Assembly (NCBI GenBank): GCA_008632985.1
Contig: QPGO01000062.1
Location: forward strand, 62,001-126,000
From: Psammoneis japonica
Lineage: Eukaryota
Length of the DNA: 64,000 nt
Reading direction: 5' to 3'
Under the pieces are notes generated by a model, which made no database searches, had not been told where the DNA came from, and worked only from the letters and a program-made list of their open reading frames with translations. Made by a program: the position numbers and the translations under genes. Positions 506 to 22,053 of this stretch are shown here, piece by piece (the first letter of the stretch is position 1; every line of letters begins with the position of its first letter).

Positions 506-1930
506 CTTGAACTTGTTGCCTTCTGTGGTGTGTGTGCACAATGCACTGTGCTCGAAGAACGAGTGTAAACGAAAGTGTGACGAAGTTCAAAAGGTGAAAA
601 TTATGAGAATCATTTCTGCGCAATCATTTTGGGTTTCTCCGAACGGGTTCTCAACAGCCTAAACCTTTTGCACTGCTCCTACAGACAAAAGGCCTTTCGG
701 AGAATGTGATCGTGACGACAGATTGTCCGGATACGATTGACATTGACACGTAAGATGTCAACATCATCGCACGATCGCATTTGCGATTCTCGACTTCCAA
801 TCACTTCTGTGTGACTGATCTGTACTTCGTACGAACCCACGATTGACGTACGATTGAAATGTGCTTTTATTTGACACATGGATGTACATGTGCAACACAC
901 ACATGACAACGCATGTTGCAAGAGCACGACTCTGAATGATGTTTGGATGCCCGTGGAATCTCCATTTAATTAGAGCAAAGCTCTGAATGAACAATGGACA
1001 TCCAACTAGAGCAAAGCTCTGAATGAACAACGGACGACGACAGCCTCTCCATTCAAACAGATCACAACTATGAACAAATTTGCTGATGCTCTGAACAACT
1101 GTCATTTACGAAGCTGTGCTTCGATTGACTCTGTCAACAAACACATCCGCCGAACCCTGACTGTGCCGGTGAAATCAATCCCAAGCAATTGCACATCATG
1201 TTGCGTCGTGCGCATGTGTTGCGTTGCCTCATTGTTTGTTGTTGTTGTTTCGGGTTGTCCTTCGGCGCCGTTTGTTAGATGCAGCTGACATGGTCTTTTG
1301 ACAACACTGCACACACAATGCAAACCTGCAATTGCAAGAACCATTCAATGCATTCATGCAAACCCAAACTGCCTTTCTTTGTCCAACCTTGCAACTGCTT
1401 GATCCAAAAACAACATCACACTTTTCGCCACAGCATTTTGCAGGGAACAGTGGGTTGGTTTTGAAGCACGCTTGAGCAAAATATTTTCCGTCATCTTGAT
1501 GGACCAAGGCATGGAACAAGTGAGCCTCCTCGCACTTGCACTGCAAACACAAACAAACAAACACAATTGGTTTGTGTGCGGGAACAAGACAACACAACAA
1601 CAGGCATGCCAAATCAACAATGACGTTTGCTCTGCACCTGCGAATTGCAAGCAGTTGTTTGATCCACTTGAGCCACAACGAGTGTTGCAGTTTTGTGTGT
1701 GCGTTTGTCATTTGCTGTCTTTGTCTTTGTTGCAAACAAACAACAAAGTGAGAGGTGATGTTTCCAAGATGCTGCGCACAATCCGCACGACTTCATCATG
1801 CATTCTCACCGCTTTGTTTTGCAATGGATTTGACAATGGTTTAGAGTGGTTGGCTGGTTGAGTCTGCAAAAGAAATGCCATCATGACACACATTGAATGC
1901 CGTTAGATCAACTTCTCAATGGCAATCCGG

Positions 1931-2460
1931 AGCACCAACAATGCTCTCACCTTTTCATTTGCGCCATTTGCCATCGTCTCTTCGACCTTTCTCATTGCAA
2001 ACAACAACGGCTGTGTGAGACGTGTCTGATGAATTGCACAATTGGCTGCAAGACAATGTGATCTCACCGTCTTCTGTGGTGCTCTCTCTGGCATTTCAGC
2101 AACTGGGGATGGTTGAGTCTGGCATCCAGCAATGACGCCCCAAAGTGGTTGGAGCAATTGTTTCATTTGCAACTGGAGCACCGACATTGCTCTCACCTTT
2201 TCATCATTGCCACTGTCAACCACCTCATTTGCCTGGTCACAAAGAACAGCAGGAGCAGTGTGATTGGTCAATCCAATCCATGTGTCACGCTCTGCCTCAG
2301 AACTCTGTTCACTCACTTGTTTTTTTTGTGCTGCTCCAGTGTTTCAACTGTCTGGGATGGTTTGGTGTGGCATCCAGCAACCCAATGAGGCCAAAGAGCT
2401 GTTGGAGCAACAGTCCAAATTGACAGCTGGAGCACCGACAATGCTCTCACCTTTTCTTTT
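1931..2460. repeat. Degenerate ~250-bp tandem repeat, three partial copies
   Basis: The motif agcacc(a/g)aca(a/t)tgctctcaccttttc recurs at 1931, 2177 and 2431. It translates on the minus strand as EKVRA(L/M)xVL. Confidence 0.7.
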
Positions 2461-3223
2461 GCACCAGTTGGCTCGTCCATCTCATCAACCTTTTGCATGA
2501 AGAACAGTGGTGTGAGCGACGTGCAATTCAGCCGCATGACACAATGCATTTTTCTTGCCGCTGGAGCGTTCCCGGGCTCTTGTTCCATCCTGCAACAAGG
2601 GGACCCAGACAACTGTGTCTGACAAGCCAAACAAGGCATCAAAGCGGAAGTTGGTTAGAGCCATCCAACACCACAGCAATTGGACCACCAAATCATGTGG
2701 TCACCTGTGACACCATTTCTGCCAACTCTTCGTCATTGGAACTCCAACCATCGATGACATCCAAATCCATGGTGAGGGGTTCTAGTTCATCATTGCACTC
2801 CCGACGAGGAATTTGCTCTGCCTCCTTCTCCTTCTTGGTTAACTTCCGCTTTGCCGTTGGTTCGGATGGGCAATTTAGCGCGGTGTCCATGGTCAGTGTT
2901 GACACCTGAGTTTTGGACTCATGTTGCGGATCAAGCACAATCTCTTCGTTGACCATTTGGGATGAACTGGTGACTGTCATGCTGCCATGAATCGACTGGA
3001 GCAAATCTTCCTTGGACAGCGGAACTCCCATTTGTTCTGACAACATGCTTGCTGTTTTCGCAAGGTCCACAAGGGATGCAATGTCAATGTCTTTGCTGGA
3101 TGCTCCCTGAGCAACTTGTTTTGATGCTTCGGTGTTCTCCTCCTGCTGTCAAGGACCGGAAATGGGAACGAAGTCGTCAACCAAACAAGATTGTCAACAA
3201 AAGGACAAACAAACAATGTGCGA

Positions 3224-3817
3224 CTAACTCACAGCCACTGGTTTCATCGACATGACGTAAAACTTTGCTTTGGTTGTTGTTTCCGCATTGGTTGCAGCGG
3301 GGACGGCCACATGTGTTTTACCTCCATTCTCCTTGTTGCTCTTGTGCATTGCAGTTGCCACACACCAGCCTGCTTTCCGCAGCACAAACTCCACAAACGT
3401 TTTAATTGTTTGACATTTGGCTTGGCGTGCCACCACAGCAAACCCGCCTCTGTCATCGCGGTGCATTTTGCGAGGTTTGCTGGAAGCGTCCGTGGTGTGC
3501 GGCATGAGCTTCATGTTGTTTGCGGTGAACCATTTGTCAATGGCAGCAGCCAGCCATCCTCTGTTGCGATGAAAGGCGTGGAAAACTTGACACACAAGCT
3601 GCTGATTCTCGGTTGTGTTGTCCATGCTTGCCAGAATGTTTTTGAAGTCTTCTGTTGTGACGGGATTGGTGTTTGTTGATGGCATTGCCACTTCCTTGTC
3701 CATTGCATTTTTCCGACAGCCCTCCAGGCATTGAGTCATGACGTGTTGTCGAAGGGACGACCGGATTTGTGCCAACTCTTGTGGCATCTTCTTGCCATTG
3801 GGCGGCACCATCTCCAC
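3224..3817 (-). pseudogene. Uncharacterised transposon-cargo ORF, TpA-mutated
   Basis: 197-aa ORF with protein-like composition (QELAQIRSSLRQHV...) inside the TpA-depleted domain; no family recognised. Confidence 0.3.
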
Positions 3818-4864
3818 CTCACCAAGTTGTGGACGTGCCTTTCAGCATGACCACAAAAGAGCAGCATCCTCTGGTCTTGTGGGGTCAGCCCCTGTCGTCG
3901 GATGGAAAAAGTCTCTTGGACAATCCAATGGACGATTGGGTGCTGTCATTTTTTCCCCTGGATTTGTCGTGGAAGCTTCCCACTGCATGTCAGATCACAA
4001 TGTTGGCTTCCAAACGCACACTTCGATTTCAAATGCACCCACCTGTGTTCCCCGCTGTTGCAACATCTGTCCTTGACTGGGTTGCGTTTCCCTCTGTTGA
4101 AGTGTTTGCCCTCGATGTGTTTGTAAGATCAAGGCTGACGACCGACACCTGTGTCTGATGAAATGAATTCGTCATTGTGTTTTCGACTTCCAATCGCTTT
4201 TTATGCTTGTGGATGGTCCGGGACGAGCCGAATCTGTTCGACACAATTGCAAAGTCACGGTTGCATGTTCTCATTGCACGGTTTTTGAATTGTGTTCAGT
4301 TTTGTTCTTTTCTGCATTTTTCATTGTTTCAATCAAGCATTGTTGTTCTGAAATGAACATTGACAACCATGTCGACCTGTTGTGTTAAGAAGATTGTTCT
4401 TTCCTCCCATTTGAAACAAAATTTTCCTTAAACAAAAATTGGGTTCTCATTGGCTCACTTTTGAATGTATGATTTTCCACAATTGAAGTTTGATTTTTCA
4501 TGTGTGTTCTTTTTTAAAGTGCTCGCTTCATCTACGTTGTTGAATGAAATGCATTGTGCAATCACACGATTGGGTGGGAGTGCATGCGCGCGCGTGCTGC
4601 TCTTTCAGCGTGTGGAACATGTGTGGGGCCCCACGTGCAGGGCTTGTCTGCAAATGCGCAGTGCAGCAGAATGCACGTGTTTTGCGCTTTTGGTGATTGA
4701 GAGCACATGCGTTGCTCCACCTCATTTTCACAAATCCTCTGCGCTGTGCAAGCCCATCAACAGAACTGCGATCCCTCCCCTCTTTTCCATCCAATCATCT
4801 TTTGGGACTCTTCTTGAATCTTGCATCTTGCTCTTTTGCGCATTGAACAATCCCAAACGATGCC

Positions 4865-6396
4865 ATGGACGACATGGCAAACAATTGGGGGTGCAATTTG
4901 GTTGCCGTCAGCCCGCGTGGCTTAAAACGCAATGGCGAAGATTTGATGAATTCTTCCATGGACATCGGCCACCACAAGCAGTTAGAAGAAGTTGTTTTTC
5001 ATCACTTTGATGGTGAATTGCTGCTGTACAAAGTGATGCCAAACGGCTCCGATGCAAATTTGTTTGCAATTAATTCTGTGACGGGAGGGCACAACGACGG
5101 ATGTTTGATTGCATGTGGAAGTCATGTGGCCGGTGATCATGGGCCTGTCCACTGTTGGACTGCCAGCACGTTCAGCGCAGAACATGGTCCGAGCGCGGCA
5201 ATGCATCCGGACGATGTGTTTAACTCTTTTACACGCAATCACACCATTGCGCTGCCGCATCATGTGCCAGGCACTCTGAGCTCCGTGGAGCTCAGTGAGT
5301 GCGAAAACGATTGTCTCAACCACACTCATCTCCGTTGTTTGATGCAGGCTGTAAAGAAGGTGCCAATCACTGCATTGTTTTTAGAATTGATGCTGGCAAA
5401 CAATGGCGCAACACTCAGCGACATTTTTCTAGAATCTCTCGGTCGGTTGGCTCACCACCATTCCTTTGAGATTGTTGTTGACGAAATTGTGACAGGCGGA
5501 CGCAGTGGATGCATGCCATCATGCCTGGCTAAACCCAAGCATTTTGTTGATGCTGTTGCCTGTGTTGCCATGGGCAAATGGCTGCAAGCTGGCACAGTTT
5601 TAGCAAAACCCGATCATTGCAATCAGTTTTGCAGCATGACATCATCTCTTCCCAATCGTGGCACCTCCACGGGCATGGATTGTAAACAAATCATCATGAC
5701 ATGGAAGACTGCAACTTCACAGTTTTATCTCACAGCCGAGCGTCGACAAACTGTCCTAAAGAAACTCAAAGTGACAGAGCAAGATGCGTGGGGCAGCGGC
5801 TTGCTTGTGTTTGCTCCTGTGAAACGAAGTGATCTGACGCCAGCGACCAAGAATCGTTTCCTTCCTTTGCTTTGCGCCACCCCATTGGACAACATGAAAG
5901 TCCAAAAGCACGATCAGTGGACGAAGCCTCTTGTGAGCCAACGCATTGTTGATGGATGCCGCTGTTGGTTAAATGCACACCCGCACACGGACGAGGAAAT
6001 GAGCGGCGCACACAAATTGCTCAGTCATTTTGCGGATCAACCCGCGGGCACGTGTTTTCAAACTAAGGGGCTCATGATGAATGTCCTTGGTGGGAAGCCT
6101 TGCACACCACGCAAACGTGCCAACTGTTGCGTGCTGCAGAAAAGGCCGGGCTTGTTGGCAAAACATTGGTGACTCGCAAATGCCTGCATGCCTGGAAATC
6201 GTTGGCCCCGACAACCATGCCAAGCAAGAAGAATCAACCCATGATTGCATTGTCTTGCCGCTTGCGTTTGCGCAACCTTGTTTGGACAGCCTTCGGCATT
6301 TCGAAAAAAACTGCTTCCTCCACTGCTGATTTTGGATCTTCTGCCAGTGCATCTGTTTCAAATGTGTCATTCCCTGAACACCAATTCAACCACTGA
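4865..6396 (+). pseudogene. Class-III PLP-dependent aminotransferase-like gene, hypermutated, with a frameshift near the 3' end
   Basis: ALFLELML...FLESLGRLAHHHSFEIVVDEIVTGGRSG...AMGKWL matches the class-III signature (xEP...FL..LR.L...h.i.lI.DEVxTGfGRtG...tlGK, PLP lysine). The tail appears to continue in ORF 6100-6396. Confidence 0.6.
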
Positions 6397-9300
6397 ATGT
6401 CTTTTGCCGGAAGAGCGAATTCATGATTGGAGTCGAAGATCCAACCACCATGCAAAGCAGTGCAGTGATTGTTTGTCAACCGACAAAGAACGATGTCATC
6501 GGCAACGTGGGTGGTCAAATCGAAGAATCCCCTCTTGCCAGCTGCCATTTTCTGACGCTTCTTGCATGCGTGCCACTTCATTGATGTAGCCAGTGGAGGA
6601 CAAAGCTTCTGCTTTTGTCCCAACAACATGCCAATGGCGAACTCCAACCGTTTGTTGTTGGTGTTCTCTGATCTGCAAGAATGATCCATGTAATTCACAA
6701 TGTGTCGCTCCATCCTTTCATCTCTTACATTTGGGACACTGGCCAGGCTCGAAAACACGCACGTGTCTTTCTCCCCTTGTTGATGTTTGACTGGGGGTCC
6801 CGAGCTGGGAAATTCCAGCCCACTTTTATCTGACACGTGACCCTCCGGCAGTCTGTGCCATTTCTTCCCTGGTTCCCAATCACACATGGCCTTGTACACT
6901 GTGGGACATCGCTGCTGAAAATTGGCTCTTGCCCACTCCATGGTGCAACAGCGCGGTTTCTTCCTTGTGCCAACCCCCACGAATGCTGGCGTTCCCTCCG
7001 GACCTTCAAAATCATCATCGGCTGCAAGCCCCTCCTTCATTGGCTCCTTTGCTGTCAGCCATCTCACTTTGTGAACCTGACCATTGTTTGTCACGTGATC
7101 AGCTCTTTTGCCAATTTGCCTCTTTTGTCTGGCATTGAAAATCACTCTTGTGTCAGGTTTCTTTTTAGCTTCCTCAATTGCGGCTCGAACAAGGTTCATC
7201 GGCCCTCCTCCAATGTCCTTGTCATTCGTCGCTCCAAAACAGTCTTCAGCAAATGTTCTGCCATGCTTGAAATCTTCGAACCATCCACAAAAAACTGGTC
7301 CTTCACAATCAACAGCATCACCTGGCACCTCACTTTCATCCGGCCGTGTGGCCCGATCGACCCACTCAAAACCATGCAGCCGTTCCAATTCTTTGGCATC
7401 CTCATGGCACATCCTCGCCTCATGACGTAGATCTTGACATTTCTTGTCCCTGGCAGACAACACTTTTCTTCGTGACACAAGGAGACCTTGATCTTCTGGT
7501 TCCGATTCGGACTCCTCTTCCTCTGGGTCACCATCTCCCTCTTGTGGTTTCGGTTCCTTCTTTTCTCTCTTGTTTCCCCTGGCAGAGAATTTTTTGTCAA
7601 GCATCACCTCCTTCGCCAGCTCTGTAAAACGATGTTGTCGGAACAACCGATTGATCTGGCACCAATGCAGTTGTTCCGCTTCTTTGCACCAAATTGCAAT
7701 GTGTCGCAAAGGTGGCAGAAAGAAATCCTTTTTGTTCAACCGCACTTGGCGTTTCTCTGGGTCCTTCAGAGTTTCTCTGTCTTCTTGTGCAGCACCAGCC
7801 AGCAGTTCGTACACTGCACTTTTGCTTTGTGCAGTGCAAATGGGGCACTTGCCCGGAACACACATTGCATGATCACAGCAAGGTCCCGCAAGCACTGAAA
7901 ACAAAGTTGCTGCTGGTGACAGTCCACCTTGATCTTCCTGGTTGTAATCGATGGGAAACACCATGTTGCACGTGTTGCACTTCATGTGGATGCTTTCAAG
8001 AAGTTGACACGTGGCTCCATCATCACCCAAAGGCATTTCCATTTCCATGTCTTCATCTGAATCGCTCCGACTCTGTTGGCAGTGCTTGGGGTTGAGAACA
8101 TGCTTCCGGTTGTCAGTTCCCAACTCCGCAGTTGCGTTGAACTTGCCCCTCACACATTTCGCTCTTTGAGCCAGCTCGGAAGTCCTCGATCGAAACGCCG
8201 CTCTTTTCCATGTTTCATCATTTGCTAATTCGCTCATTTGGCAGGAGAAATTGACGCTTGCGGCAAACAAAGCTGTTGTCTCGAAATGTGACTTAACTTG
8301 GTTGGCGTCACTTGCACCCACGCAACATTCGTAGGATTCGTAAATGCACTTTCCAATGTCAAACCATTGGCGTCCATCCATGTGTTTTTGCCAGGAATCT
8401 TTAAAAGAATCCAGCGTCGCATTGCCAACCATCACCACTGACGATTTGTAGATGAGGTCTTTCTCTTGATCCACCAAATCTTGGCATTGATCGGCGGGTC
8501 TCTTCTTGCTGCTCCAGAACCCAACACAATCTCGCCAATGTTTTGCATTGCATTGGAAATCATCCTCTGTGTGAGAGATGGGCAACGCAATTTTTGCACA
8601 ACGTGTGGTGACTCTGCGTTTCACCATCAGTGCCCCAGTGTCATCTCCGTCCTCTTTGATCAAAGCATTCCAACTCCAATGGTGTCTTGCTCTTTCCCAA
8701 GAGGGCTCCTCATTCATTTCCTCTGTGATGTCCTCGAAACCCAAACTTTCACAGCAGCATTGTTTGAGCTTGACTTGACAATGCAGCATTGTGTCCCAAG
8801 TGCCAACAACCGTGCAGCCGACAGATTGAGCCAGGCTAATCAGGAAGGGGCACAACCCATGGTTGTGTGCTTTGGCTCCTCTGTCGACTCGAACACAGTC
8901 AACAATTGTCACTGGCACCAATTCAATGCACCGATGCAACAATGCAGCGACAATGTCAGTTGCCAGTTTGCCACTTTCTTGATTTTTTGGCATTGCACAA
9001 ATTCCCAAAATGTGAGTGTGTTTGTTGTTCAACAAGTCAACAATGTTGCCTTCGTTTTCTTGATTAAATTCACGAAGAAGAAAATCCTTTACAGCTGCCC
9101 TTGCTTTTTTACTTGCTTCTTTGCCGAAGTCGGATGACAACCCCTTCTGGTTGTGATGCAACAAAATGCACTTCTTCCCGCGATCATTCGGCCCGCGTCC
9201 AGAATTTGCCAGTGTTGTCAGTGATTTTGGTTCTGTGCTTGGGTTGACCATGGTAAACAAGGGACAAGTGCGGTGGACATTGCCCCGCACACGCTTTGAC

Positions 9301-9629
9301 ATGTCATGTTTGATTGCATTCACGAAACGCCGGAGCTTGGTGGGAATGTGTTGAATGTCCCCCTCCTTGGATTTTGATGATTTTGGTGAAGAACCCGCAT
9401 CTTTCTTCTCCTGAGAAGCATCATTGTCTATTTCCTTAGAATTCACAGCTTCCTTGTCCTCCTCTGACGTCCGCATTTCCTCCGGCATTTCCTCCTCCTC
9501 TTCTTCCACATCTTCTTCCTGGGAATTGTGGTTGTTCTCCTCCTGTGACAACCGGATTTCCTCATTCTCTTCTCGGGAAGCCACAACAGCCGCTTTGGCA
9601 AGAGCTTTCATTCCATTGTCCCTTGACAT
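6234..9629 (-). CDS. 1131-aa multidomain cargo protein: acidic N-terminus, GNAT-like domain, C-terminal papain-like Cys-His-Asp domain (Tyr-depleted, probably inactivated)
   Basis: GNAT-like segment TIVDCVRV...HNHGLCPFLISLAQ...MLHC...CCCESLGFE (with C/H restored to Y: DYVRV...YNYGL...YYYESLGF). C-terminal QQGEKDTCVFSSLAS...NHCTALHGGWIFDSN fits the QxxxxxC/H/D layout. Confidence 0.5.
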   Translation of the reverse strand: MSRDNGMKALAKAAVVASREENEEIRLSQEENNHNSQEEDVEEEEEEMPEEMRTSEEDKEAVNSKEIDNDASQEKKDAGSSPKSSKSKEGDIQHIPTKLRRFVNAIKHDMSKRVRGNVHRTCPLFTMVNPSTEPKSLTTLANSGRGPNDRGKKCILLHHNQKGLSSDFGKEASKKARAAVKDFLLREFNQENEGNIVDLLNNKHTHILGICAMPKNQESGKLATDIVAALLHRCIELVPVTIVDCVRVDRGAKAHNHGLCPFLISLAQSVGCTVVGTWDTMLHCQVKLKQCCCESLGFEDITEEMNEEPSWERARHHWSWNALIKEDGDDTGALMVKRRVTTRCAKIALPISHTEDDFQCNAKHWRDCVGFWSSKKRPADQCQDLVDQEKDLIYKSSVVMVGNATLDSFKDSWQKHMDGRQWFDIGKCIYESYECCVGASDANQVKSHFETTALFAASVNFSCQMSELANDETWKRAAFRSRTSELAQRAKCVRGKFNATAELGTDNRKHVLNPKHCQQSRSDSDEDMEMEMPLGDDGATCQLLESIHMKCNTCNMVFPIDYNQEDQGGLSPAATLFSVLAGPCCDHAMCVPGKCPICTAQSKSAVYELLAGAAQEDRETLKDPEKRQVRLNKKDFFLPPLRHIAIWCKEAEQLHWCQINRLFRQHRFTELAKEVMLDKKFSARGNKREKKEPKPQEGDGDPEEEESESEPEDQGLLVSRRKVLSARDKKCQDLRHEARMCHEDAKELERLHGFEWVDRATRPDESEVPGDAVDCEGPVFCGWFEDFKHGRTFAEDCFGATNDKDIGGGPMNLVRAAIEEAKKKPDTRVIFNARQKRQIGKRADHVTNNGQVHKVRWLTAKEPMKEGLAADDDFEGPEGTPAFVGVGTRKKPRCCTMEWARANFQQRCPTVYKAMCDWEPGKKWHRLPEGHVSDKSGLEFPSSGPPVKHQQGEKDTCVFSSLASVPNVRDERMERHIVNYMDHSCRSENTNNKRLEFAIGMLLGQKQKLCPPLATSMKWHACKKRQKMAAGKRGFFDLTTHVADDIVLCRLTNNHCTALHGGWIFDSNHEFALPAKDIQWLNWCSGNDTFETDALAEDPKSAVEEAVFFEMPKAVQTRLRKRKRQDNAIMG

Positions 9630-9672
9630 CGCAGGCGAATCCTTGCTTCCCTTTGCTGCTGCCTTGTTTGCG

Positions 9673-10901
9673 TCAAACTGTACAACACAACGAGGGTGCC
9701 CCAGCCAGTTCTCCAGGTCTTGTCATTGAAAACCCAATTGGCGGACTGTCGGTGGGCGACAGACGCGGAAATGCAGGGAAGAGACACAACAGACGATGAT
9801 GACCCACCGACAACAGTGGCCTTGGAACATGTGTGTTCTTGACAACGTCAAGGAAAAAGGAGCTTACGCCGTCTGCCAACACAACCCAGATCAGCCGGTC
9901 CCCTTTTCTTCAAACTGTGCAACACAACGAGGGTGCCCCAGCCAGTTCTCCAGGTCTTGTCATTGAAAACCGATTGGCGGAGTGTCACTGGGCAACGGAC
10001 TGGCAGCCCCACTCGTCCGTTGCTGTGCAATTGTCAGCAGTTGACGCGGAGACACAGGGAAGAGACACAACAGACGGAGACGACCCACCGACAACAGTGG
10101 CCTTGGAACACACATGTTCTTGACAATGTCAAGGAAAAAGGAGCTCACCCCGTCTGCCAACACAACCCAGATCAGCCGGTCCCCTTTTCTTCAAACTGTG
10201 CAACACAACGAGGGTGCCCCAGCCAGTTCTCCAGGTCTCATCATTGAAAACCGATTGGCGGAATGTCACTGGGCGACGGACTGGCAGTCCCACTCGTCCG
10301 TTGCTGTGCAATTGTCAGCAGTTGACGCGGAGACACAGGGAAGAGACACAACAGACGGAGACGACCCACCGACAACAGTGGCCTTGGAACATGTGTGTTC
10401 TTGACAATGTCAAGGAAAAAGGAGCTTGCGCTGTCCACCAACACAACCCAGATCAGCCGGTCCCCTTTTCTTCAAACTGTGCAACACAACGAGGGTGCCC
10501 CAGCCAGTTCTCCAGGTCTTGTTGTTGAAAACCGATTAGCGGAACATCACTGGGCGACGGACTGGCAGTCCCACTCGTCCGTTGCTGTGCAATTGTCAGC
10601 AGTTGACGCGGAGATGCAGGGAAGAGATGTGACAGACGGAGACGACCCACCGACAACAGTGGCCTTGGAATGCACATGTTCTTGACAATGTCAAGGAAAA
10701 AAAGCTTGCGCCGTCTGCCAACACAACCCAGATCAGCCGGTCCCCTTTTCTTCAAACTGTGCAACACAACGAGGGTGCCCCAGCCAGTTCTCCAGGTCTC
10801 ATCATTGAAAACTGATTGGCAGAACATCGCTGGGCAACGGACTGGCAGTCCCACTCGTCCGTTGCTGTGCAATTGTCAGCAGTTGACGCGGAGATGCAGG
10901 G
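9673..10901. repeat. 281-bp tandem repeat, ~4.4 copies (first copy has an internal deletion)
   Basis: tcaaactgt(a/g)caacacaacgagggtgcccc at ~9673, 9910, 10191, 10472, 10752; ggaa....gttc at 9824, 10105, 10386, 10667. Confidence 0.95.
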
Positions 10902-12225
10902 AAGTTGCTGACTTTGTCTGCAACCAATTTCGTGGCAGTGCCTGATGATGATTGTAAAGAGTCAACAAAGCACAGCGTGCACACCAAATTGTCTGAGATG
11001 TGAGATAAAGAAACAATGTGCAGACTGCGCCGTGAGCTCAGTGTTGTTCTCACAGCAGCGATGAAGTTTCGGTTCTGGTGGTGTCTCGCAATGAACCTTC
11101 ACCAAAGGTCACAATGTTGTCAACACTTGTTGGCAAGTTGACAAGAATGACAACATGCAATGGAAGGATGAATGACAACAGCATTGCATGAACAGCAAAG
11201 TTTGATGACAACAGCGGTGTCAGCGGCGGTGTCATGGATGCATGCTTTTCCGACATTTGTGTTGTTGTGACATGCGGCAAATGCAGTGATGTCACAGAAA
11301 AGAGGGGACTTGTTTTCTTGTTAAATTCTATGATGAATGCAGAATTTTTGTGGTGTTCTGTTTGTGGCGCTGCAGGCGGCCACAACCAGTTGGCCACGTG
11401 AGGGGATGACATGCAAAATTCCGGATTCCGGTGTTCTGACTCACCCAACATACATCATCTCTCAATCACGACCAGACAAAGGCGACATCATCATCGCACA
11501 ATCACATTCTCGCACAAATGACAAAGGAGTTGTGAAGCTGTTCTGCTCTCATTGTTTTTCATTGCAGCATCTGCTCACTCAAATTCCAACCATCCATGCA
11601 CCATGGAAAAGGCAAATGTGACGCTCCCGCTTGGAGCAGATCCGGCGCTCCCAAGGGAAGAAGGACAAGGAGTGCGCGTCCATCAAGAGATCCGCCGGGT
11701 TGCTTGATTCCTCAAAGATCCGAGTCGCCTGTTCAAAGTTCCACAGGTCAGTTGTGGTGAAATCGAAACGACGGATCCAGGGAACGCAGACTGTCTAAAT
11801 GGCGATGCAGGTCGAGGTCGAATTCCCACCAACGACGAAGGTGTCAATCGCCGTCCCGGTCTTGGTCAAGTTCTCGGTCTCGCTCTTTGTCAAGTTCTCG
11901 GTCTCGATCGCGTCATCGGACCAGACATCGTTGTCGTTCTGGAACTTCTTCGCGTGGTTCTCCTTGTCGATCAAGGTCTCATCATTCTGGGTCTAGGTCT
12001 CATTCTCGTCGAAGGCATCGGCGACGGTGTCGGTCACCATCCATGGGTCACCACAACTCAAGTTCCCGGTGCAGTTGCAGGGAACGTTGTGGTGCTGTTC
12101 CCCACTCTCCATGTGGGGATCACCAAGGTCGATCGCAATCGCGGCAGAGGTCACGCCAAAGGTCTCCATCCAGTTCACCGCAATGGTCTCGTCGAAGGTC
12201 TCTGGATTCTTCCAACAAAAGGTCT

Positions 12226-12616
12226 AGACGCGTTCCAGGTCTAGGTGGGACCTCGCACTGCTGAACTGTGACATCGACAGTTTTTTGAATCTCGTCGTAT
12301 GTCGCGCACGTAGAATTCTACGTGATTTTTTGATATTTTGTGTCATTTTACGGTGCACTTATTGAGCGATCCGTCCAACAACTTTTGACATTTTTTGTTA
12401 CAGCGCGATTCTATAATGTCTTAAGAATCGCGTAGGGCAGGTGCATTTGCAAAAATGTCGAGTGGCAAGAGGCACAATTGTGCCACAAACTTGGCCGTTT
12501 ATTTGATGTTGAAGACAATTACATCCATTGATTAAATTCTCGTACTACGGAGCTCGCACGTAGAATTCTACGGGCCCAATGTCACACGGAGTCCCACCCA
12601 GGGCTGGAACGCGTCT
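12226..12616. promoter_or_regulatory. Symmetric AT-rich, TpA-retaining island between divergent ORFs (putative bidirectional promoter)
   Basis: CGCACGTAGAATTCTACG occurs at 12305 and 12555, and 12307-12324 is a perfect 18-bp palindrome. Inverted 26-bp arms at 12226-12251 and 12591-12616 differ at 3 positions. Confidence 0.5.
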
Positions 12617-12621
12617 CTAGA

Positions 12622-15558
12622 TTGTCACCTCGGCGTAGACACAGGTCACCGCACAGGTCACCATCCAGGTGCAGGTCACCCTCCAGGTCAAAAAACAGGT
12701 CTCCAACAATGTTGAGGTCACCATCCAGGTGTCGGGGTCGATCGCGTGTTCGCAAACCCAGGCATTCGTTGCACTCGCACAGGTTGGGTACATCGAGGAA
12801 ATCTGAGAGTCGCGGTTGGGACAAAAGCCATCCTCCCGCACGTTCTGCAGATGACAGCATCCGCTCAAGGAGTTCAAGCAGAACAAGTCAACCTGCCAAC
12901 AGCGGCATGGTCCCATTTTGTCAAATGCGACTCCGCAGAAACAGAAGTGGCAGTCCAATCTCACACCGCACAAGATCTGCCACATCCAGGTCACGCAGCC
13001 TGGAATCTCCCCTGGGACGGTCTCCACCTCCTCGCAAGCGAAGACCAGCAGACCGGTTGCTTTGCTTGCTGAGTGTGCAGCACATGCGGGAAGAAGCAAA
13101 AGGCTGTGAGGACTCGGCTTCTGTGCATCACGTCGAGGAACAATCAACAAACAGTGATGTCATTGATTCTGTTTTCTCAAGTCAGAGCGACCAATCATCA
13201 TCGCATTGGCATGATGGCGCAGTTGTGTCAGCACTTCCCATTGATTTCTCTGATTCTGATTTGCCCAATGGAAGCAGAGACGAATCATCTGATTGCCATT
13301 CAAGCGCTTTTGAGGCAGCACTGCCCTTGCAGATGCAGCGTCCAACTTTCACTGGCAACTGCAAGACTCGGCGGGAGAAAACAGTGTTGCCCCGTTCCCT
13401 GCCACAAGAAGAGAGCTTGCGTGCCAAAAACATGTTCAATGTTGTTTTTGTGTTTGAGGAGATGAACAGTGCTTGCTTCCGCCACAATTCTGGAAAAGCC
13501 AAAGCACTTGACAATTTGGGGAAACTGTCTGGAGAACACAGGCAAAAGCATGCCACCCATCTGCATGTTGTCTTCCAGTTGAAACTGCAGGTGTGCTTGG
13601 CAAGCAGAGCAGACATCCCCCACTGCCAAGTGCCAATTCCGGATTTGGCGTTGGCACTTGGACAGGATGAAACTGACATCAAATGGTCCTTGTATGATGT
13701 TGATTCCGACCATTGCAATGACTTCATGTTGGTGCTCAACCACTTTCCAAACAAACACCCAATCTGCCACATTGACTGGGGCCGATCGCACGTGCTGATT
13801 GACAAATGCCATGAACGTGAGTCGAAAAGCAACCAGGGAAAGAAAACAAGGAAAGGCAATGTTGGCAAGAAAACTGGCAAGAGAAAACGTTTTCAGAAAA
13901 AGAAAAGCAACAAGCCCAAGAAAACTGGGACCCATTGTCAACCAAAGGACCACTTTGCAGATTTCGGCGTTTGCACCAACACAAGCACTGCAAGGGAAGG
14001 CCATGCTGATGGTGTTGCACGGCCTCGAGTTGGGAAAGGGACTGAGGAAGCAATGCCTTTTTTTGAGTCTGCCTCAGCAAACAATGTCGTGGAGGCACTG
14101 CATCTGGCGAACACCAAATTTGGCAAAATTACGGATTGCCACTCGGATGAATGCAACGGCCAAAACAAAGACATGACCCCAGTTTTGTCTGTTTCAAAAA
14201 TCACAAATGATGGAGAAACAAGAGATGCTGTCATTGCTTGCACCCGCAGTTCTGTAGAAACTGCGGAGAAGAGGATTTGACTTGCCTTGCCCATCACAAC
14301 ACGAGCCATTCGCACCTGCCAAAACTTGCCCGTGCACCGGCAACGACTGGAGCCGGCAATTGTCTGTGATCACTTGACAGGATTTAAGGGATGCAAAGGA
14401 ATCGATGCATTAAAAGGCGACTGCAACATGGAACCAACGTCATGCCACCAGCTCTTTCTACACTTCATTGTCGCAATGATTGACAAATTCTCACTTACGT
14501 TGCCGCAGATTGTCGCTGTTCAGACTTGCTTCGAGGTGCACCCGGCGCAGTCATGTCACTTTGGAGCAGTTGCGTTGGTTCTTTTATCCGTTGATGCCTT
14601 CCAGCCACCAAGCGACCCCTGCGGATTGGGGTGTCTCATTTAAGAAATGATGGTCCACATAAAAGAGGCACATTCTAGAGGCATCCCTCTGCGATGTGCG
14701 TCACACAGCAAGAGACCACCCTTGCCAACCAAGGCTGAATGGAAAAAACGGAATGATAAAAAGGGAAAGTGGATTTGTGACATTTGGAATGAGCATGCAA
14801 ACAAGCCACAAAACAAAGACATCGTCTCTATTTACAAGAAACTGATGAATCAGTTGTCTGAATTCTCCCCGCAATGCGACGTCTTGCACCTCAATCATTC
14901 GATTGCGATCATGGCAGAAATTGGCCAGCTTCCTGTTTGGATGCTGCATCATTGCCACTGCAAAAAGGATTCCCTCCCTGACACAAAAATTGCCGAAGAA
15001 TGTGGACTGGGCAAGATGGACGATGCGGACATGTTCCATTTGGCTCAAACCATGCAGGGTGCATTCACCGTGCAGTTGAACAACCCCGGGGGTGATGACA
15101 AGAAAGACACTCACTTCACCATTCGTTTTGTTGAGAACATTCTTTGCAAAATGTTTCGCTTCTGGATCAGCAAAGGGAGGGTAAACTGCTGCGATGTCCA
15201 TTTTGCAGGAATGTCATTTTTTGTTTTCCACGATGAGGCGAATTTTCTTTGTCACTTTGATGGTTCCAGTGACCCCGAAGAGCTGCCTCCCGGTGGATTA
15301 ATCCAAAACTTTTCATGTAAAAGTGAGGAAAAAAAGATGGAGGAGATTGCCAAAGAACTGTGTGAGGACAATGATTGGGCCGGGTCGACCTGGGATCATG
15401 GTCCCATTCAAATTGCATTTGAACTCAATTTCAACAAACTGCTGTCTTATCCACCAGAGGCGATGTTGGACATTTTGGCCAAAAACAAAATGTCAAACGC
15501 AATGAGGGACTGGTCTGTGTGGTTCTACTTCATAAAGAGAAAGAGGAACATGAAATGA
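12622..15558 (+). pseudogene. ~980-codon cargo gene with two in-frame stops: RS-rich N-terminus, HxDxxN...RxxxIx(Y)xR segment, C-terminal ENILCK helical region
   Basis: ORFs 12622-14280, 14287-14643 and 14647-15558 share one frame, separated by single stops (TGA 14278, TAA 14641). Confidence 0.55.
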
Positions 15559-15761
15559 GAGCAGACACCCAGCTCGCATGTCCTTCTCATCCCCCGCAGC
15601 TAGCTGCGTGTCGGCCACAACAGCGCGTCTTTAAACAAAAGAGCATGTGCGCTGCTCCTTCACGGGTCCATCCACCATTGGAGCACGTGCACTGCTCATG
15701 CCATTGTCTCCCCCACACAGGCTGGATTGTCAACCAAGACGGATGACAGAGCAGTTGATGG

Positions 15762-18700
15762 TTAGCCGGCTGTCAACCAATCGTCGAAAACGTCCAAGCT
15801 GAGTTCCGTTTTCACAAAGCATCCATCTCTGGTTCTTTCATTCCACAGATGGCTGACACAATAAAAGCTGTTTAGGAACGTTTCACCATCATCTTCCATC
15901 CTTGGCAATGCCAGCACAAACTGATGTCCCAAGCTGTTGCAAAGATCTGTTGCCGCATCAAATGATTTTCTCCTGTCTGTTGCTTGAACTGGCACCATCC
16001 AACACAAGTCCAAAATTTCTTCACCTTCCTCATCCACAAATTCTAAAGCAACTGCAGTTGCAGAGGAGCGAGTGGCTCCTTTTTCACCCACTGGTCGAAA
16101 CAACAACCACACAGTGCAATCGGATGACACAAGGCCAGCAAAGGGAAGGCATTGCTGTCTTGCCTCCAACAATGTGTTCCAGTTGCTGTAGATTTTGAAG
16201 ATGCCATCTGGACGTCTGTTCTTCGATGAACCTTTCTCACTGTCACGTTCTAAAAGCCAAGAAATGGTTGCCTGTTGGTGAATGTGACGCAAAGCGATTG
16301 TTTGCCAGTCTGCATTGCTGCGTTTGATGCTGACCTCTGGCCTCACAGTTTGCACACCACTTTCTCCAGAATCGTCACCCTCCCAATGCAGAATGGCCGG
16401 TCCATCATGTTGGTGGGATTCCGCGACTCCCAGCATTCCAAGTGAAACAGATTTCACAAAGTTCGCCTTTTTTTCTTTTTCTTCTGAACTTCACCGTCGC
16501 CTTCTACGGCATCGTTGTCTGCCTCATCTGAGGGTGCTTTCATCAACCACATGTCCATCTCGACCATTGCATCCAAATGTGTCAAAACCATTTCGTGAAG
16601 GTCCCCAACAACGCGCTCCGAAGACATGACTCAGCTCAGACAAGCTTGTGTGGCAGAAGCAAATAGAAGCAACATCCGTGACACACCTGCACAATCCGAG
16701 TGATTGTCCATTGCCCGTTGTTGGTGAAGCGCAGGCAGCGCAACCACAAATTTTACTGTCCTTGCCCAAAAGAAGCAATTTTCACTGACCCAGGGACCTG
16801 TGCCCCACTTGCTGGTGGACAGTGGATGAGCCGCAAAACATTTGGTTGATCGGAGGGACTGGATGGACCGCAAGCATTTGTTTGCTTGCTTTCCAAAGGT
16901 TGCCTGAAGTTCAAATCGAGAGAACAATTTGGACATCATTTCGAAATCACTTTTAACACTGCCCAGACCAATGGTGTGCATTGGTGCACAATGACAACGT
17001 GAAAGTGCTTTGGGATTAAGCCAAGGTGCTGGATGTGTTGGGCAAGGCAGGTTGCATTTTGCAGCTGCGCACACTGTGTCGATGTGGCATTGGATGACGG
17101 CACAAGTACGAAGACAGGCCGTGAGGTCAGCTTTGGTCCAAAAGCGCTTGGCACTTGGGGTGCCCGGCGGATGTGTTCTCATGTTGTGATGTGCAAACAC
17201 GATCGCTTGCTGCAACCAGGGAACAGTGAGTTTGATGGAGGCCAGCCATTGTCTTGGGGTGGCCACACGTTGGCGTTTGCGTCTGCGACGAGAAGAATCG
17301 GTCGATGTGGATGGATCTGTGGCCAAGTCTTGAGTGGATTGGATGTCATGTGCCGACGGGTTGAAGACAGTCACTTCCCTGCCAGTGGGAGGTTTCGGTG
17401 CACCTTCGCGTTGGTCACATGAACAGGGGCAGTCAGCCGGAGCCAGAAAACGAAACGCAGTGTCGAACACATTCCAGGATGCACAAGCATTGTGTGGACA
17501 TGTGCTAGAAACAGGAGGAACGTTGATTGCAACTGCGCCATCCACTGGTGCTCCTTCTTCCTGTGAATTGTCGGTGACATCAGAAGGATCCTCGGACGTG
17601 CTAAAATGGTTGCTCACATGTGCTTTGCGACAGAGCTGACAATGAGGCAAGTGTGATTGAAAGAACAGTTTCCATCTACATGGCAGGCATGTTCCCAAAA
17701 CGTTGAACAGCTGCCATTGTGGTCTCCAACACGAAACATGCAGGAACATTCAGGCCGATCCACACAAACACTGAGTTTGCCAGCTTTAACCCGTGTGAGC
17801 TTCTGCAGTCCGCCATGGTAAAACCAATGGCTTTCTTCAGACAACGACTGCAGTTCGCATTCAAACATTGTCTCCACAACTTCATGATTTTCTCCCTTGG
17901 ACGACATTGCCATGAAGCAGGTGTGGCATCCACTGGAAGAATTGGGAGGAGGGCAGCAGGTGTGCGTGTCAAGCCACACTTGATTGTGTGACTTCTTTGT
18001 GCCGTTGGGATCGAAGTCATCACGCCATTCTCGCACCCAAAGATGCAACACAAAACCGTCGACATCTTCTTTAAGTTCCATGAACAAGGAATGCGCCGCC
18101 GGTGTGCGTGAAATGGCAGGTTGCGAATCTTGAACAATGACGTCCGCATCAAAGTGGAACTTGTCAAATTGCGTGGCTTTTGCCAACTCATTTGCAAGCA
18201 CGTCTTTAAAGGAAACATGGGAATGACTGCCATCATCGGTTTTCCTGGGAACAGGATGAGGCAAATTTGGCACAATGGCATGTTTGCTGGACAAATGCAA
18301 CATTTCAAAATCTTTCACAGAAGTGGGGACACGAGTCCGACGAAAAATGGACAAGTCTGGATCACGGCTGTTTGTGGCTTGCAGCATGCATTCTGCCAAC
18401 AATTCACGTTGTTTCTCGGTGAGTTGTGAAAGCAGGCTAGCCATCACAAGTGAAAAATGGGCCTCTTCTTTGGTCACCTCGGTGACGGGCAATTCGAAAG
18501 CGTCAGCTGTCAATTTCTGGATGCCTTGTCCGGGGTGCGAATGCTCGCACCAAAAAAAGGCCGGGCTGTTGGAGTCCGGATCAAAACCTTGTCGGAGATC
18601 ATCAGTGCGCAATGGAGGACGTGAGCCGGCATCATTGACGTCGTAAATCCAATCATCTTGGTTGGAAGGCTCCTTGCTCTCGGAAACAGAGGCGTCATTG

Positions 18701-19275
18701 TCATCGTTGCACCAACATTCGTCGTGTGCAGGCTCCGCCGGCGCACACACGGCATTTGCACTGCTTGTTGGTGCGGCTTTCAAAGCTTCAAAGGATTGCA
18801 CATGAGTTGGAGTTATGGTGTGCTCAACGCAGGTTTTCCAATCTTTAAGAATTGGAAGATGACGACCACCGCTGTTTGTGTTGCTGCTGTTCCAGCAGCA
18901 TTCGCAGACAAAAAAGGAATCAACTGAACACTCCGGGTTGAGACATTTGCCGGAATGGAGGCAATCACCCATGTTTATGATGCTGTTGGAGTTGTCACAT
19001 TGAGTCAATGGAACAGTCAAGAAGCAATGTTTGCAGCATGTGGAGAAGGCTGTGGAGGCCATGACTTGTGCAGACAAAGGTGGAAATGCAAAAATTGTGT
19101 TGTGTGTGCGATGCGCCGACACAGGCGACAATTGACAACAACAGAGCAACAACGATGCTCGTCGACAGATCGCCACAAACAAAAATGACGAGATTATGAG
19201 CATTGACTGGCAACCATGAATGCATGCGTGCACATGCGCCAATGACGCTTTGAATCGTCCATCATTGCGTCTCAT
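15762..19275 (-). mobile_element. Plavaka/CMC(EnSpm)-like DNA transposase, frameshifted and hypermutated
   Basis: Ordered motifs across three ORFs: EWRDDFDPNGTKKSHNQVW...SKGENHEVV...FECELQSL...VCVDRPE (17614-19275); HCAPMHTIGLGSVK and GPWVSENC (16631-17749); DGPAILHWEGDDSGESGVQ (15762-16457). This order matches Plavaka/Tnp2-type RNase-H-fold transposases. Confidence 0.6.
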
Positions 19276-19673
19276 TGTGTGTGTGTGTGTTCATTGTTCG
19301 TTTGCTTTGAAGAAAAACCATTTGCTCTGAGAGTGCAAAAGGTCGCAGGAGGCTGCAGTCATTTGAAGCGAATGCCCTGAATGATTGCACTTAATCGAAG
19401 GCATCCTCTGAATGTGGCTAAACAGGGCAAATGTTGGCATTTTGCTCTGATTGTCTTGTGCACAGAGCATGTCGCTCTGACCATGGCTCAAACAGAGCAA
19501 AGCCACAACCAGTTGTTTGGCACTTGCAATCGGGGCAAAATGCTCTGTTTGTTTTTTATTTAGAGCGAAAACAGCTTGTTCAGAGTGATTCTCATTTGCA
19601 GTGTAATGAGTCGAAAGAAAGAAACAGGGTTCAGGAGGTGGCGGCGGTCGGCGGGGGCGGAAAACAAGACTGA

Positions 19674-21001
19674 GGCACGTTCCCACCCTGATAATTTCGG
19701 CCGTAAAATAAATGTAATTTGGCCAAATTTACGTGTTTACGGGCGTCAGGCTGGGAATGAATTCGATCGGTAAAAAAGATCAAAATCTCATGTCGAGCTC
19801 GGTGAGGACGCTGCACGCCACAGCACTGTTTACACTGCTGCTGCAGCACTGGCTAGAGCTGCTAGCTAGAGAGACACCACAACATTGTCAGCGACAATCG
19901 TTGTCCATTTTGCGATTGCTCTGCGGCAACCCAAGACTCAGGATGACACCAGTGAAGGTCAGAAGAAATACATCCAACATTCAATCCACTGGCAAGAGTT
20001 GCAGAGAGATCAGAAAGACGCACGAAACAATGGCATGCAGTGAGACTACAGCATGTAAAACTGCCAAATGTAATTTCTGCAGAATGTGAGGTGCCAAAAG
20101 GCACCATTGTTGACTCTTGCGGTTTGCCATTGGCCCAAATCCATTTCAAAGAGCAAAGTGACAAAGAGCAAGTCACAGAGAAGGCCTCCAGACAGTAGAG
20201 CAAGGCACTGTGAGGCACAATGCCGATGATGTTGCGCAAAACATTGACCCCCACCAGCATCATTGTCCTAACTTCCGACAAGATTGATGAAATGAGTGCA
20301 CACAGCCTTCTTCACAGTCACATTCTATCACAACAAGCCTTCCTGTTGTTGTTGAAGTGACCAAAATGTTGCATTCTTGACTCTTGACCGTCAATCAAGT
20401 GACCTTGAGCACACACCAAAGAACCACCTCAATGTGACATCAGATCACAATGTGTTGCTACGAGGATTCGGCCTCAAGTCTGTGGACGTGTGGTTTGTGA
20501 AGAATCCCAACGCGAAATCTGAACAAGAGAAACGAAGACATCAAAAACACCATTGGTCGACACGGTCATCACAAGCCATGACAACAACGAAAAATCAAAA
20601 TTGTGACAGCTTGATCGTGTCGAGCGCAGTCTCATTGACCTGTCTCCACAGTCTTGCCTTCGTAGACAGGACGGTCGTTCGTGTGTGAACGGGTCCGTTC
20701 ATGGCAGCAGCCATCATGGTTGTTGTGCGATCGGAGCGGAGAAAGAAAAAAAATGGGCGGCTTGTGTGACGTGGCACGTTCGAGCTCCCAAAACGCCGAA
20801 TTTGCCGTGAAAATTATGTTTGCGGGAGAGAATTTACGACGACCGACACCTGTCGTCGTAATTTGCTGATGATTTCGGCTGTAAATTGGCGGATGGAAAA
20901 CAGACGTGCGATTTTTCTTGTACGAGAGTTTCTACAGGAATTTTGTGTAGAACGAAATTACATTTGTTTTACGGCCGAAATTGTCGGGGTGGGAACGTGC
21001 C
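19674..21001. mobile_element. Non-autonomous TIR element (PIF/Harbinger-like MITE), 1328 bp
   Basis: ~47-bp TIRs GGCACGTTCCCACCCTGATAATTTCGGCCGTAAAATAAATGTAATTT (from 19674) and its reverse complement ending at 21001, with 3 mismatches. A 3-bp TSD TGA lies at 19671-19673 and 21002-21004. Confidence 0.85.
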
Positions 21002-21044
21002 TGAAATCGAAATTTTTGGGGCGATGCCGATGACGGTTAAGGCG

Positions 21045-21840
21045 GGTCATCCCCGCGTTCATCCTAGAAATTATCGTGGCATTTGAACAAGGACATTTGT
21101 GGTGTTTATTTTTGAATGCAAAAATTATTTACATTCACCCCCGATCGCGCACGAAAACGAGAACATCAGGCACCGTGATCGAAGCACGATGATGACGGTG
21201 ATGTCGACATAAGTCCAAAACACAGTGGTCCGTGCGCAAACATTTGATGCATGTGTGACCTTAGATGCACAACAAGCACAAAATAAATGAAAGTTGACGC
21301 ACGGCCCACCTCCGTCACAGACTTGTGGCTTGATGTTTTCACCACGGTGAAGCACGGTGAAATTCAAGAAAAATCATGCAAATCACGAGCTGTTCGGCCA
21401 AATTCGAGCTAAAAAAAGTGGGGGATGACCCACCTTGAGGGGGGTCATCCCCGCGTTTGTCCCAAAATTGCCGTTGCATTTGAGTGAGGTTTTTTACAGT
21501 GTTCATTTTTGAACACAAGAATTGTTCATGGTCACACCCGATCGCGCACGAAAACGAGAACCATCAACACCGCGATCGAAGCACGACGATGATGACAATC
21601 ATCGACATTTCTCAAAAACGCAGTTTGCCGTCTACCAACTTTTCATGCGTGTGCAATCTTTGATGCGTGACAAACACAAAACAAATGAGAGTTGGCAGAC
21701 GGGCCACCTCCATCACAGACTTGTGGCTTGTTGTTTTCACCACGGTGAAGCACGGTGAAATTCAGGAAAAATCATGCAAAACACGAGCCATTCGGCCGAA
21801 TTCGAGCTAAAAAAAGTGGCAACCGACCACCCTCAAGGAC
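21045..21840. repeat. ~398-bp direct repeat, two copies (possible subterminal repeat of the large DNA transposon)
   Basis: ggtcatccccgcgtt at ~21045 and ~21443; ccgatcgcgcacgaaaacgagaac at 21141 and 21538; cacagacttgtggcttg at ~21316 and ~21714. Confidence 0.85.
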
Positions 21841-22053
21841 CCGCGTGCAATCTTCACAATCAAAGACAAACAATTTCAGTCGGCAATCGCTTCGTCGTGT
21901 TGAAGAAACCTGTCCGTTGGCACATCAACTCGTCAACTCGGCACGCTGAGACAGCATTGGACAAGATGCTGGACTTTTGCCGTTGTCTCTGTCCCTCAAA
22001 CTGTTTCCATGTCATGCAAATTGTTTGTCATGACATCGTGAGATTGGCCCACC

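Follow-up and report, generated by a model that had tools for sequence, protein, structure and literature searches.

Fungal RIP, which is triggered by the homology of duplicates, changes C to T at CpA and thus makes TpA, and the adenine base editors of the laboratory have been evolved from a tRNA enzyme; to our knowledge, hardly any natural case of adenine editing in DNA has been described. The closest described case comes from the rhizarian Bigelowiella natans, in which TpA changes to TpG or CpA at about 1000 times the background rate in integrated viral DNA, and for which ADAT2 has been proposed as the agent (Mettrop et al., bioRxiv 10.64898/2026.01.13.699255; this and the other reports cited here are referred to as far as their accessible text goes). 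The changes were measured de novo in mutation-accumulation lines, and the process was active in some lines only (bioRxiv 10.64898/2026.01.13.699255).

The window of the present study, i.e., the whole stretch of 64,000 nucleotides from the diatom Psammoneis japonica, carries a pattern that resembles that of Bigelowiella in the occurrence of A>G or T>C changes almost only at TpA and on both strands, in the long-term loss of TpA with a gain of CpA and TpG, and in the confinement to one class of DNA, which is foreign DNA in that alga, where TpA-poor genes are enriched in transposon domains, and mobile DNA here. However, the giant-virus and virophage inserts of Bigelowiella have retained many TA steps (Rho 0.45), whereas in the diatom a multicopy DNA transposon and an LTR element are affected, conversion is near saturation, and CpG decay occurs alongside. 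Furthermore, the accessible text of the Bigelowiella report mentions neither a motif around the target nor bystanders on the same strand or protected ends, and the words "trinucleotide" and "diatom" occur zero times in it (bioRxiv 10.64898/2026.01.13.699255). Our literature search, which covered mainly papers available without subscription, found no earlier report of TpA hypermutation in diatoms.

The pattern shares with RIP the character of a mutational defense acting on mobile DNA, the dinucleotide specificity, the sharp edges, and the strongest effect at a tandem array. Different from RIP, which makes TA from CA and TG, the direction here is the opposite one, neither duplicates of the host nor its long coding array are hit, and long single-strand tracts do not occur. 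The TadA-derived editor ABE7.10 likewise changes A to G on DNA, with a 5'-YAY preference and a small bystander window, but it is engineered and guide targeted, whereas here T at position -1 is nearly obligatory and A at -2 is favored (PMC10188366). Finally, the transposons of diatoms carry CpG methylation, with the involvement of DNMT5a (Hoguin et al., bioRxiv 10.1101/2021.06.11.447926), and a CpG decay of this type explains well one class of the variable columns described below, the CG type, but not the TA type.

The tandem array and the transposon that carries it

The array starts with a short unit (9671 to 9907), in which 45 bp are missing, continues with three full ones of 281, 281, and 280 bp, and closes with a partial one reaching to about 10904. 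In each unit, 16 sites are derived from TA and 17 from CG; in the genome search, the unit matches at least 60 places on at least 15 contigs. The depletion of TpA in the array goes far beyond chance, the observed/expected ratio (O/E) being 0.04 at 10001 to 11000. In 1-kb bins over the whole element that contains the array, the ratio is 0.02 to 0.39, and in the host-gene stretch at 29 to 43 kb it is about 0.4 to 0.7. Once context is corrected for, the array is the most TA-depleted part of the element. Only three TA steps are left in the window's array (Table 1).

An earlier note on this DNA had read the array as a record of independent TA conversions, and the states quoted there could all be located. 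Downstream of ggaa, the three successive steps read CA-TG-TG (9824), CA-CA-CA (10105), CA-TG-TG (10386), and TG-CA-CA (10667); three states occur at one homologous site, namely, gctTAc (9862), gctCAc (10143), and gctTGc (10424 and 10704); and ctgTAc (TA at 9681), gatTAg (TA at 10537), and the pair gagaCACAac and gagaTGTGac are present as quoted.

Table 1. Coordinates of the features of the transposon and its array in the window
Feature	Position	Strand	Remarks
CACTG..CAGTG DNA transposon (CMCT clade, EnSpm/Plavaka-like; putative)	921..19603	-	About 18.3 kb; 2-bp target duplication
Right terminal inverted repeat	19587..19603	-	Ends ...GCAGTG on + strand
Transposase-like frame, part 1	17614..19290	-	Tyr of homologues is His or Cys here
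Transposase-like frame, part 2	16631..17749	-	Motifs resembling C(2)C and H(4)H, as judged by eye
About 390-bp insertion with 26-nt inverted ends	12222..12616	.	Absent from other copies; excluded from counts
281-bp tandem array	9671..10904	.	Inside transposon, directly upstream of 1162-codon frame
TA survivor	9681..9682	+	
Triple site CA-TG-TG, inferred TATATA	9828..9833	+	All 8 CA/TG combinations among homologous units
TA survivor at site showing TA, CA, and TG	9865..9866	+	
TA survivor in slow TTAG/CTAA context	10537..10538	+	Kept in 8/58 units
1162-codon cargo frame adjoining array	6234..9722	-	Open in window's copy; no Pfam match
Cargo frame, + strand	4847..6172	+	Weak aminotransferase class-III match, E 0.0016, below cutoff

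The array lies inside a large DNA transposon, of which we found 12 close copies, the window's included, one more that is about 80% alike, and two distant ones. The five copies having both ends measure 17.5 to 18.7 kb, and the termini CACTG..CAGTG are present at six left ends and nine right ends; the window's copy lacks the terminal 266 bp or so at the left. The 2-bp target duplication matches in four of the five two-ended copies, and in the fifth the flanking dinucleotides are TA and CA. Elements of the CMCT clade are characterized by 5'-CA..TG-3' termini, inverted repeats, target duplications of 2 to 5 bp, and, in their DDE transposase, the motifs C(2)C and H(3-4)H (PMC12730594). The present element resembles them in its CA..TG termini, its 2-bp target duplication, and its large, cargo-bearing build, but its ends differ from the TGT..ACA or CATCA..TGATG described for PlavakaA/B (PMC12730594). 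Different from the CMCT transposases, moreover, the transposase frames gave no match in Pfam, as was also the case for the large cargo frame and for eight homologues; a search of the Atlas returned a weak lead for the transposase to Plavaka/Transposase_21 (0.83 to 0.86) and no result for the large cargo protein. The transposase assignment, drawn from the termini, the motifs read by eye, and this lead, is thus a putative one. Visual inspection of the 1162-codon frame suggests a stretch similar to acetyltransferases and, at the C terminus, one similar to cysteine proteases.

The insertion found only in the window's copy shows a very high read depth, and further copies of it occur inside the element of contig C282. 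Beside the transposon, a 1.3-kb element with 48-nt inverted ends (19673 to 21002) and a 398-bp tandem pair (21036 to 21838) are TA poor as well.

Two classes of variable site and their ancestral states

For the analysis of the whole element, the 12 copies were piled up on the window, with the array and the 390-bp insertion excluded, which gave 17,013 column pairs covered by at least seven copies. Both CA and TG occur in 615 columns, 142 of which also show TA, 219 CG, 1 both, and 253 neither, so that a column shared by TA and CG occurs once among 362 informative ones, and the two classes are mutually exclusive (Fisher p 4e-31). The same division is seen in the array, where the 58 homologous units show TA 11, CA 288, TG 439, and CG 4 times at the 16 TA-type sites and CG 639, CA 95, TG 89, and TA 0 times at the 17 CG-type sites. 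Thus, two separate processes are at work, namely, TpA>TpG/CpA and CpG decay. It follows that the ancestry proposed in the earlier note, i.e., TA at the variable columns of the array, holds for 24 of 41 such columns when these are classified with the 58 units, whereas 10 are of the CG type and 7 are of other kinds; the CpG decay had been missed there, and TA conversion is not the sole process.

At the CG-type sites, CG is retained in about 70 to 78% of the observations (17 array sites and 891 element sites), and among the eight young copies, C>T amounts to 4.9% at CpG, compared to 0.14 to 0.21% at CC and CT. These columns have the features expected of CpG decay, with CG as the ancestral state and C>T raised at CpG inside the repeats only.

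Concerning the TA-type sites, the earlier note had named CG in outgroup copies as the finding that would speak against TA ancestry, and CG makes up 4 of the 742 observations at these sites in the array. TA ancestry is borne out by three further lines of evidence, based on codons, homologues, and a genome-wide search for the triple site. The codon test considered nine frames and the base that follows steps at codon position 1. A pyrimidine follows in 64 of 68 CA/TG-only steps and 28 of 31 TA-containing steps but in 102 of 169 CG-containing ones (p 4e-8); the excess in the first two groups is that expected from an origin in Tyr codons, which cannot be stops. When 46 transposase homologues from other records were used as the outgroup, three of the nine variable non-CG sites at codon position 1 that were covered by a sufficient number of them corresponded mostly to Tyr (26/46, 38/44, and 36/42) and three to Phe with some Tyr, the remaining three being uninformative (Ser, Lys, and Val), and Arg was found at none of the nine. 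Among the CG-type sites, five are mostly Arg in the homologues (32 to 37 of 38 to 44), the others being Lys or mixed. Furthermore, two codons are His in all eight copies, where the homologues have Tyr in 39/45 and 38/45 cases; these are probably older edits passed on by the source element.

The composition of the encoded proteins agrees in direction. Among the 2353 residues of four element frames, 0.6% are Tyr, 4.5% Cys, and 4.7% His, whereas the 2384 residues of four host frames include 2.3% Tyr, 1.5% Cys, and 2.6% His. The other copies of the 1162-codon frame contain 12 premature stops, 11 of which arose by CGA>TGA, and from this it follows that the TA process damages by missense.

With regard to the triple site, a genome-wide pattern allowing any pyrimidine-purine step retrieved 23 units, in which all 69 of 69 steps were CA or TG. 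This excludes CGCGCG as the ancestor and leads us to infer TATATA, in agreement with the earlier note. Neither TATATA nor TA at any step of the triple site was found in the organism's own genome assembly, which may be incomplete, and no fully TA-intact copy was found there; the unmutated source copy may be gone. On these sequence comparisons, TA ancestry with conversion after insertion can be regarded as almost certain.

Timing, targeting, and footprint of TpA loss

The units of one copy agree in CA/TG state at 621 of 1057 comparisons (0.588, with 0.579 expected by chance), and the units of the same rank in different copies agree at 1708 of 2947 (0.580). Since agreement is at the chance level, conversion took place after both the expansion of the array and the insertion of the element. 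The earlier claim that the process acted after array expansion therefore stands in general, with the exception of some arrays that expanded or were homogenized later (C66 and C149): in C66, two unit pairs are identical at 16/16 sites, in C149 one pair at 15/16, and in C224 one pair agrees at 13/14. Over the whole element, agreement is slightly more variable than in shuffles (SD 0.042, null mean 0.031). The near saturation claimed at the same time is confirmed by the 11 of 738 TA kept in the array, compared to 91 expected from context. On the other hand, the array makes up only little of a dispersed transposon, and this element has been affected over its whole length after each insertion.

The share of TA kept drops from 33% to 14% as the other divergence of the copies grows (Spearman -0.96, n = 12), and the losses of TA and of CG are correlated over the copies (Spearman 0.87) and occupy the same regions. 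In a pair of contigs that are 99.4% identical, TA sites differ at 8 of 40 positions in the TA-poor half and 2 of 363 in the TA-normal half, and CG sites at 30 of 174 and 0 of 515, respectively, with an equal background; the concentration of these differences in the TA-poor half indicates that both processes are recent and local. In the short-read X1 contigs, 96 of 104 differing places are transitions, which speaks against an artifact of long reads, with the proviso that X1 may be the source sample and thus not independent.

Information on targeting comes from the ends of the element. At the left end, three copies whose flank has an O/E of 0.36 to 1.31 have kept 18 to 19 of the 19 TA columns, and three others, with a flank O/E of 0.03 to 0.17, have kept 3 to 5. 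The trend is the same at the right end, except in the window's copy (4/18, flank 0.45) and that of C153 (7/18, flank 0.61). Apart from these right-end cases, the last 300 bp or so of the element thus appear to be spared where they lie beside TA-normal DNA. The central zone (10.9 to 13.9 kb) is also more converted, keeping 0.25 to 0.61 of the expected TA, and since the array sits in this zone, the effects of tandem arrangement and of position are inseparable.

Host sequences that are repeated were considered as well. A host coding array of 108-bp units, encoding a PT-repeat protein on the minus strand at 56416 to 64000, has kept its TA and served as a control (O/E 0.46); two tandem methyltransferase genes have an O/E of 0.44, silicon-transporter paralogues one of 0.53, and a 99% host duplicate, possibly allelic, one of 0.50. 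Overall, host genes, paralogues, and the coding array range from 0.44 to 0.65, two of the host duplicate pairs being possibly allelic contigs. The sparing of host repeats, together with the pattern at the ends, would point to a chromatin domain as the target, and not to homology as such. The silicon-transporter matches in the genome number 24 (best E 2e-208), and at G000:C38:226311-230342, a 1511-codon frame holds three consecutive silicon-transporter domains.

The conversion targets identified are one DNA transposon and one LTR element. The latter, a Copia-like element at 22051 to 28745, has LTRs that differ from each other at six TA-type positions, one CG-type position, and one other. In the blocks at 43600 to 45000 and 51000 to 56000, the TA O/E is 0 to 0.16 and the CG O/E mostly 0.11 to 0.43 (0.72 in one bin), with sharp edges; these blocks are probably older mobile DNA.

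With respect to sequence preference, the share of adenines changed to G in the eight young copies is 0.61% at AA, 0.43% at CA, and 0.36% at GA, and 37% at TA, a value that is conditional in that the TA class was defined on the columns counted and some TA/CA columns may represent ordinary C>T. The raw TA rate exceeds the background between copies about 100- to 300-fold, and non-TA adenines are changed about 60 to 100 times less than those at TA (CA about 85 times less), the changes that do occur there being mainly bystanders on the strand of a TA conversion, at most 3 nt away. Within the TA steps, A-T-[A]-Y is the favored target: the relative hazard is highest at ATAT and ATAC (2.1) and lowest at CTAA, GTAA, CTAG, and TTAA (0.28 to 0.35). 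ATAT, ATAC, and GTAT together make up 26% of the TA steps in the window's genes, whereas their share is 4 to 5% in both elements and 0% in the blocks with the strongest depletion.

The absence of a strand preference, noted earlier, holds globally (CA 2071 versus TG 1908 in the element) but not at very short range, where conversions are coupled. Adjacent steps in TATA are converted in the same direction in 203 of 309 cases (162 +/- 8 expected), with 21 of 26 site pairs above expectation, and a model of one hit at a time based on four-base contexts, which predicts 44% same-direction pairs at TATA where 66% are seen, was rejected. TA sites spaced by 3 nt tend to be converted in opposite directions (79 of 201 the same, 94 +/- 6 expected), which the reading proposed below does not account for. 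Long-range processivity along one strand was also rejected, the same-direction share being 0.47 to 0.51 at distances of 3 to 1000 nt.

Neighboring adenines are affected as well. Non-TA adenines at positions -2 and +1 of the target A change in 1.7 to 2.0% of cases versus 0.38% far off. When the changes unique to one copy were counted, bystander A>G changes within -3 to +3 nt fell on the same strand as the TA conversion in 68 of 82 cases (38.7 expected, p 4e-11), and those at 4 to 8 nt from TA in 21 of 53 (22.7 expected). No such linkage to TA was found for CpG transitions (15/30 on the same strand, 15.2 expected) or other C>T changes (15/23, 14.0 expected), and transversions were not raised near TA (20/18425 versus 92/91081). 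TA loss and CpG decay thus occur in the same regions as separate events.

Agents, rival explanations, and meaning

We consider it very probable that a targeted host process is responsible and somewhat more than even that its agent is an adenine deaminase, as the sequence footprint suggests. According to the proposed mechanism, a process of the host would target the TpA steps of mobile DNA once this has inserted and change A to G there, on one strand or the other. The deaminase would act on a single strand over a short patch of a few bases, and the resulting hypoxanthine would be copied as G. Since no strand coordination is seen past 3 nt, the action would be patchwise, with small patches, one per event, accumulating over many cell divisions. 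Targeting would be provided by a silenced, probably CG-methylated chromatin domain, and not by sequence homology, and the transposons would be crippled by missense changes, such as Tyr to Cys or His, and not by stop codons.

The enzyme may have the fold of TadA/ADAT2 or of ADAR/ADAT1. From their catalytic motifs, we take the genome to encode an ADAT2, an organelle-type TadA, and two members of the ADAR/ADAT1 family. The ADAT2 at G000:C26, with HxE-PCxxC and Asn at the position of TadA-108, is presumably an ordinary tRNA-editing gene. The second ADAR/ADAT1-family gene (G000:C79:344558-345390; L089/L090) has the catalytic motifs and homologues in many diatoms, all its named homologues being diatom proteins. 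It speaks against a deaminase that the candidates are housekeeping genes or common to many diatoms, whereas the signature is patchy among hosts. Among natural ADAT2 enzymes, that of amphioxus is the only one for which the accessible literature reports DNA editing, and it prefers GAA and TCG, not TA (PMC10354150). TadA-derived editors favor 5'-YAY and disfavor AAA (PMC10188366), a preference that, by analogy, is close to the motif found here.

As for the distribution among hosts, six metagenome loci with a related transposase, single copies throughout, include two in which the element has a TA O/E of 0.02 to 0.07 and low CG and four with at least 0.46, three of which are nearly one element. Some hosts would thus have the process, and others would lack it. 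A search for one of the two depleted loci in the organism's own genome gave no match, and in seven protein clusters taken from other records, with at most 15 listed members each, Tyr to Cys or His was found at 7 of 684 positions, not above other changes. Related transposases lying in TA-erased DNA occur in the metagenome contigs L081 and L082, the latter having an edge near position 900. The genome contains 27 PF00145 matches, among them a cytosine methyltransferase gene (L086, G000:C301:30000-39999; E 4e-44) that lies within a fully TA-erased block and, for this reason, is probably borne by a mobile element; broken copies of this type of gene are found in C297, C10, and C28.

Alternative agents have to be weighed against adenine deamination. 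Error-prone short-patch synthesis at silenced repeats by a polymerase of the eta/iota type placing G opposite T, for instance during the repair of methyl-CpG mismatches, could yield same-strand clusters, and it would suit both the co-location and the correlation over copies of TA and CG loss (Spearman 0.87) and the fact that A>G at TA is a hotspot of polymerase eta (WA motif). However, AA, the other half of that motif, lies about 60 times below TA and barely above CA and GA, transversions and C>T are not increased near TA, the bystanders are A>G only, on the 5' and 3' sides alike, CpG events lack a strand link to TA events, and TA near CG is not more converted (kept at 1.17 of expected within 5 nt and 0.87 beyond 40 nt), so that we consider this source unlikely. 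Modification, such as oxidation, of the T in R-[T]-A to a product that pairs with G, giving T>C, is identical in sequence terms, because A-T-[A]-Y is R-[T]-A-T on the other strand, and the bystanders could then be adjacent T's. We know of no natural T>C mutator of such efficiency, and the motif is like that of TadA-fold adenine editors; a lesion of thymine is in our judgment quite unlikely. Still less probable, and very unlikely overall, is that 6mA is first placed on the adenines of TpA and the marked base then deaminated or miscopied, which would mirror, in the same DNA, the methylation and decay of CpG: 6mA in eukaryotes occurs in the context ApT, whereas off-target A>G far from TA favors a following C (58/7822) at least as much as T (42/8345), and bystanders in other contexts would be left unexplained. 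Editing at the RNA level during transposition was rejected, given that the element is a DNA transposon affected on both strands and that the LTRs of its neighbor differ mainly at TA-type positions, as was GC-biased gene conversion, the excess being confined to TA and accompanied by a flanking motif.

Two readings with a different ancestral state can be practically dismissed. That the CA/TG columns derive from methylated CG by deamination, with the rare TA as a double hit, is true of other columns (17 sites of the array and 891 of the element), and C413, the relative with 80% identity, shows CG at 5 of 99 TA-class sites. For the TA class, however, this derivation is refuted by the codon test and by the Tyr and Phe of the homologues, and TA and CG share 1 of 362 informative columns, with CG at 0 of 69 steps of the triple site. 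Equally negligible is a process of the fungal RIP type in progress, in which CA/TG would be ancestral and TA the product; columns with TA and CA (46) and with TA and TG (34) do exist, but TA is depleted, not enriched, and falls with age. Moreover, 28 of 31 TA steps at codon position 1 are followed by a pyrimidine, whereas 115 of 250 CA codons are, so that about half of the products would have been stops, and a single column cannot derive from both CA and TG, which refutes it.

Taken as a whole, targeted A>G change at TpA in inserted mobile DNA through adenine deamination is the best explanation and one that we hold to be reasonably likely to be correct. In a more general form, for which the chances appear to be even, diatoms, and perhaps other members of SAR, would possess a DNA adenine base editor of natural origin, guided by chromatin, which removes TpA from silenced transposons in small same-strand patches; as a genome defense opposite to RIP, it would raise GC and kill by missense, and surviving source elements would slowly fix the edits.

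Compared to Bigelowiella, the kind of change is shared, and what is new is a second, distant lineage, the transposon targets, the near saturation, and a readable footprint. The pattern resembles what a natural DNA-editing enzyme directed against mobile DNA would leave; in the accessible literature, such a process is otherwise reported only for one unrelated alga. The footprint comprises a motif of four bases, a same-strand window of 3 nt, and domains with sharp edges, and it offers direct tests of the enzyme and of its targeting. In such genomes, the ages and the consensus sequences of transposons would be badly distorted unless TA sites are set aside.
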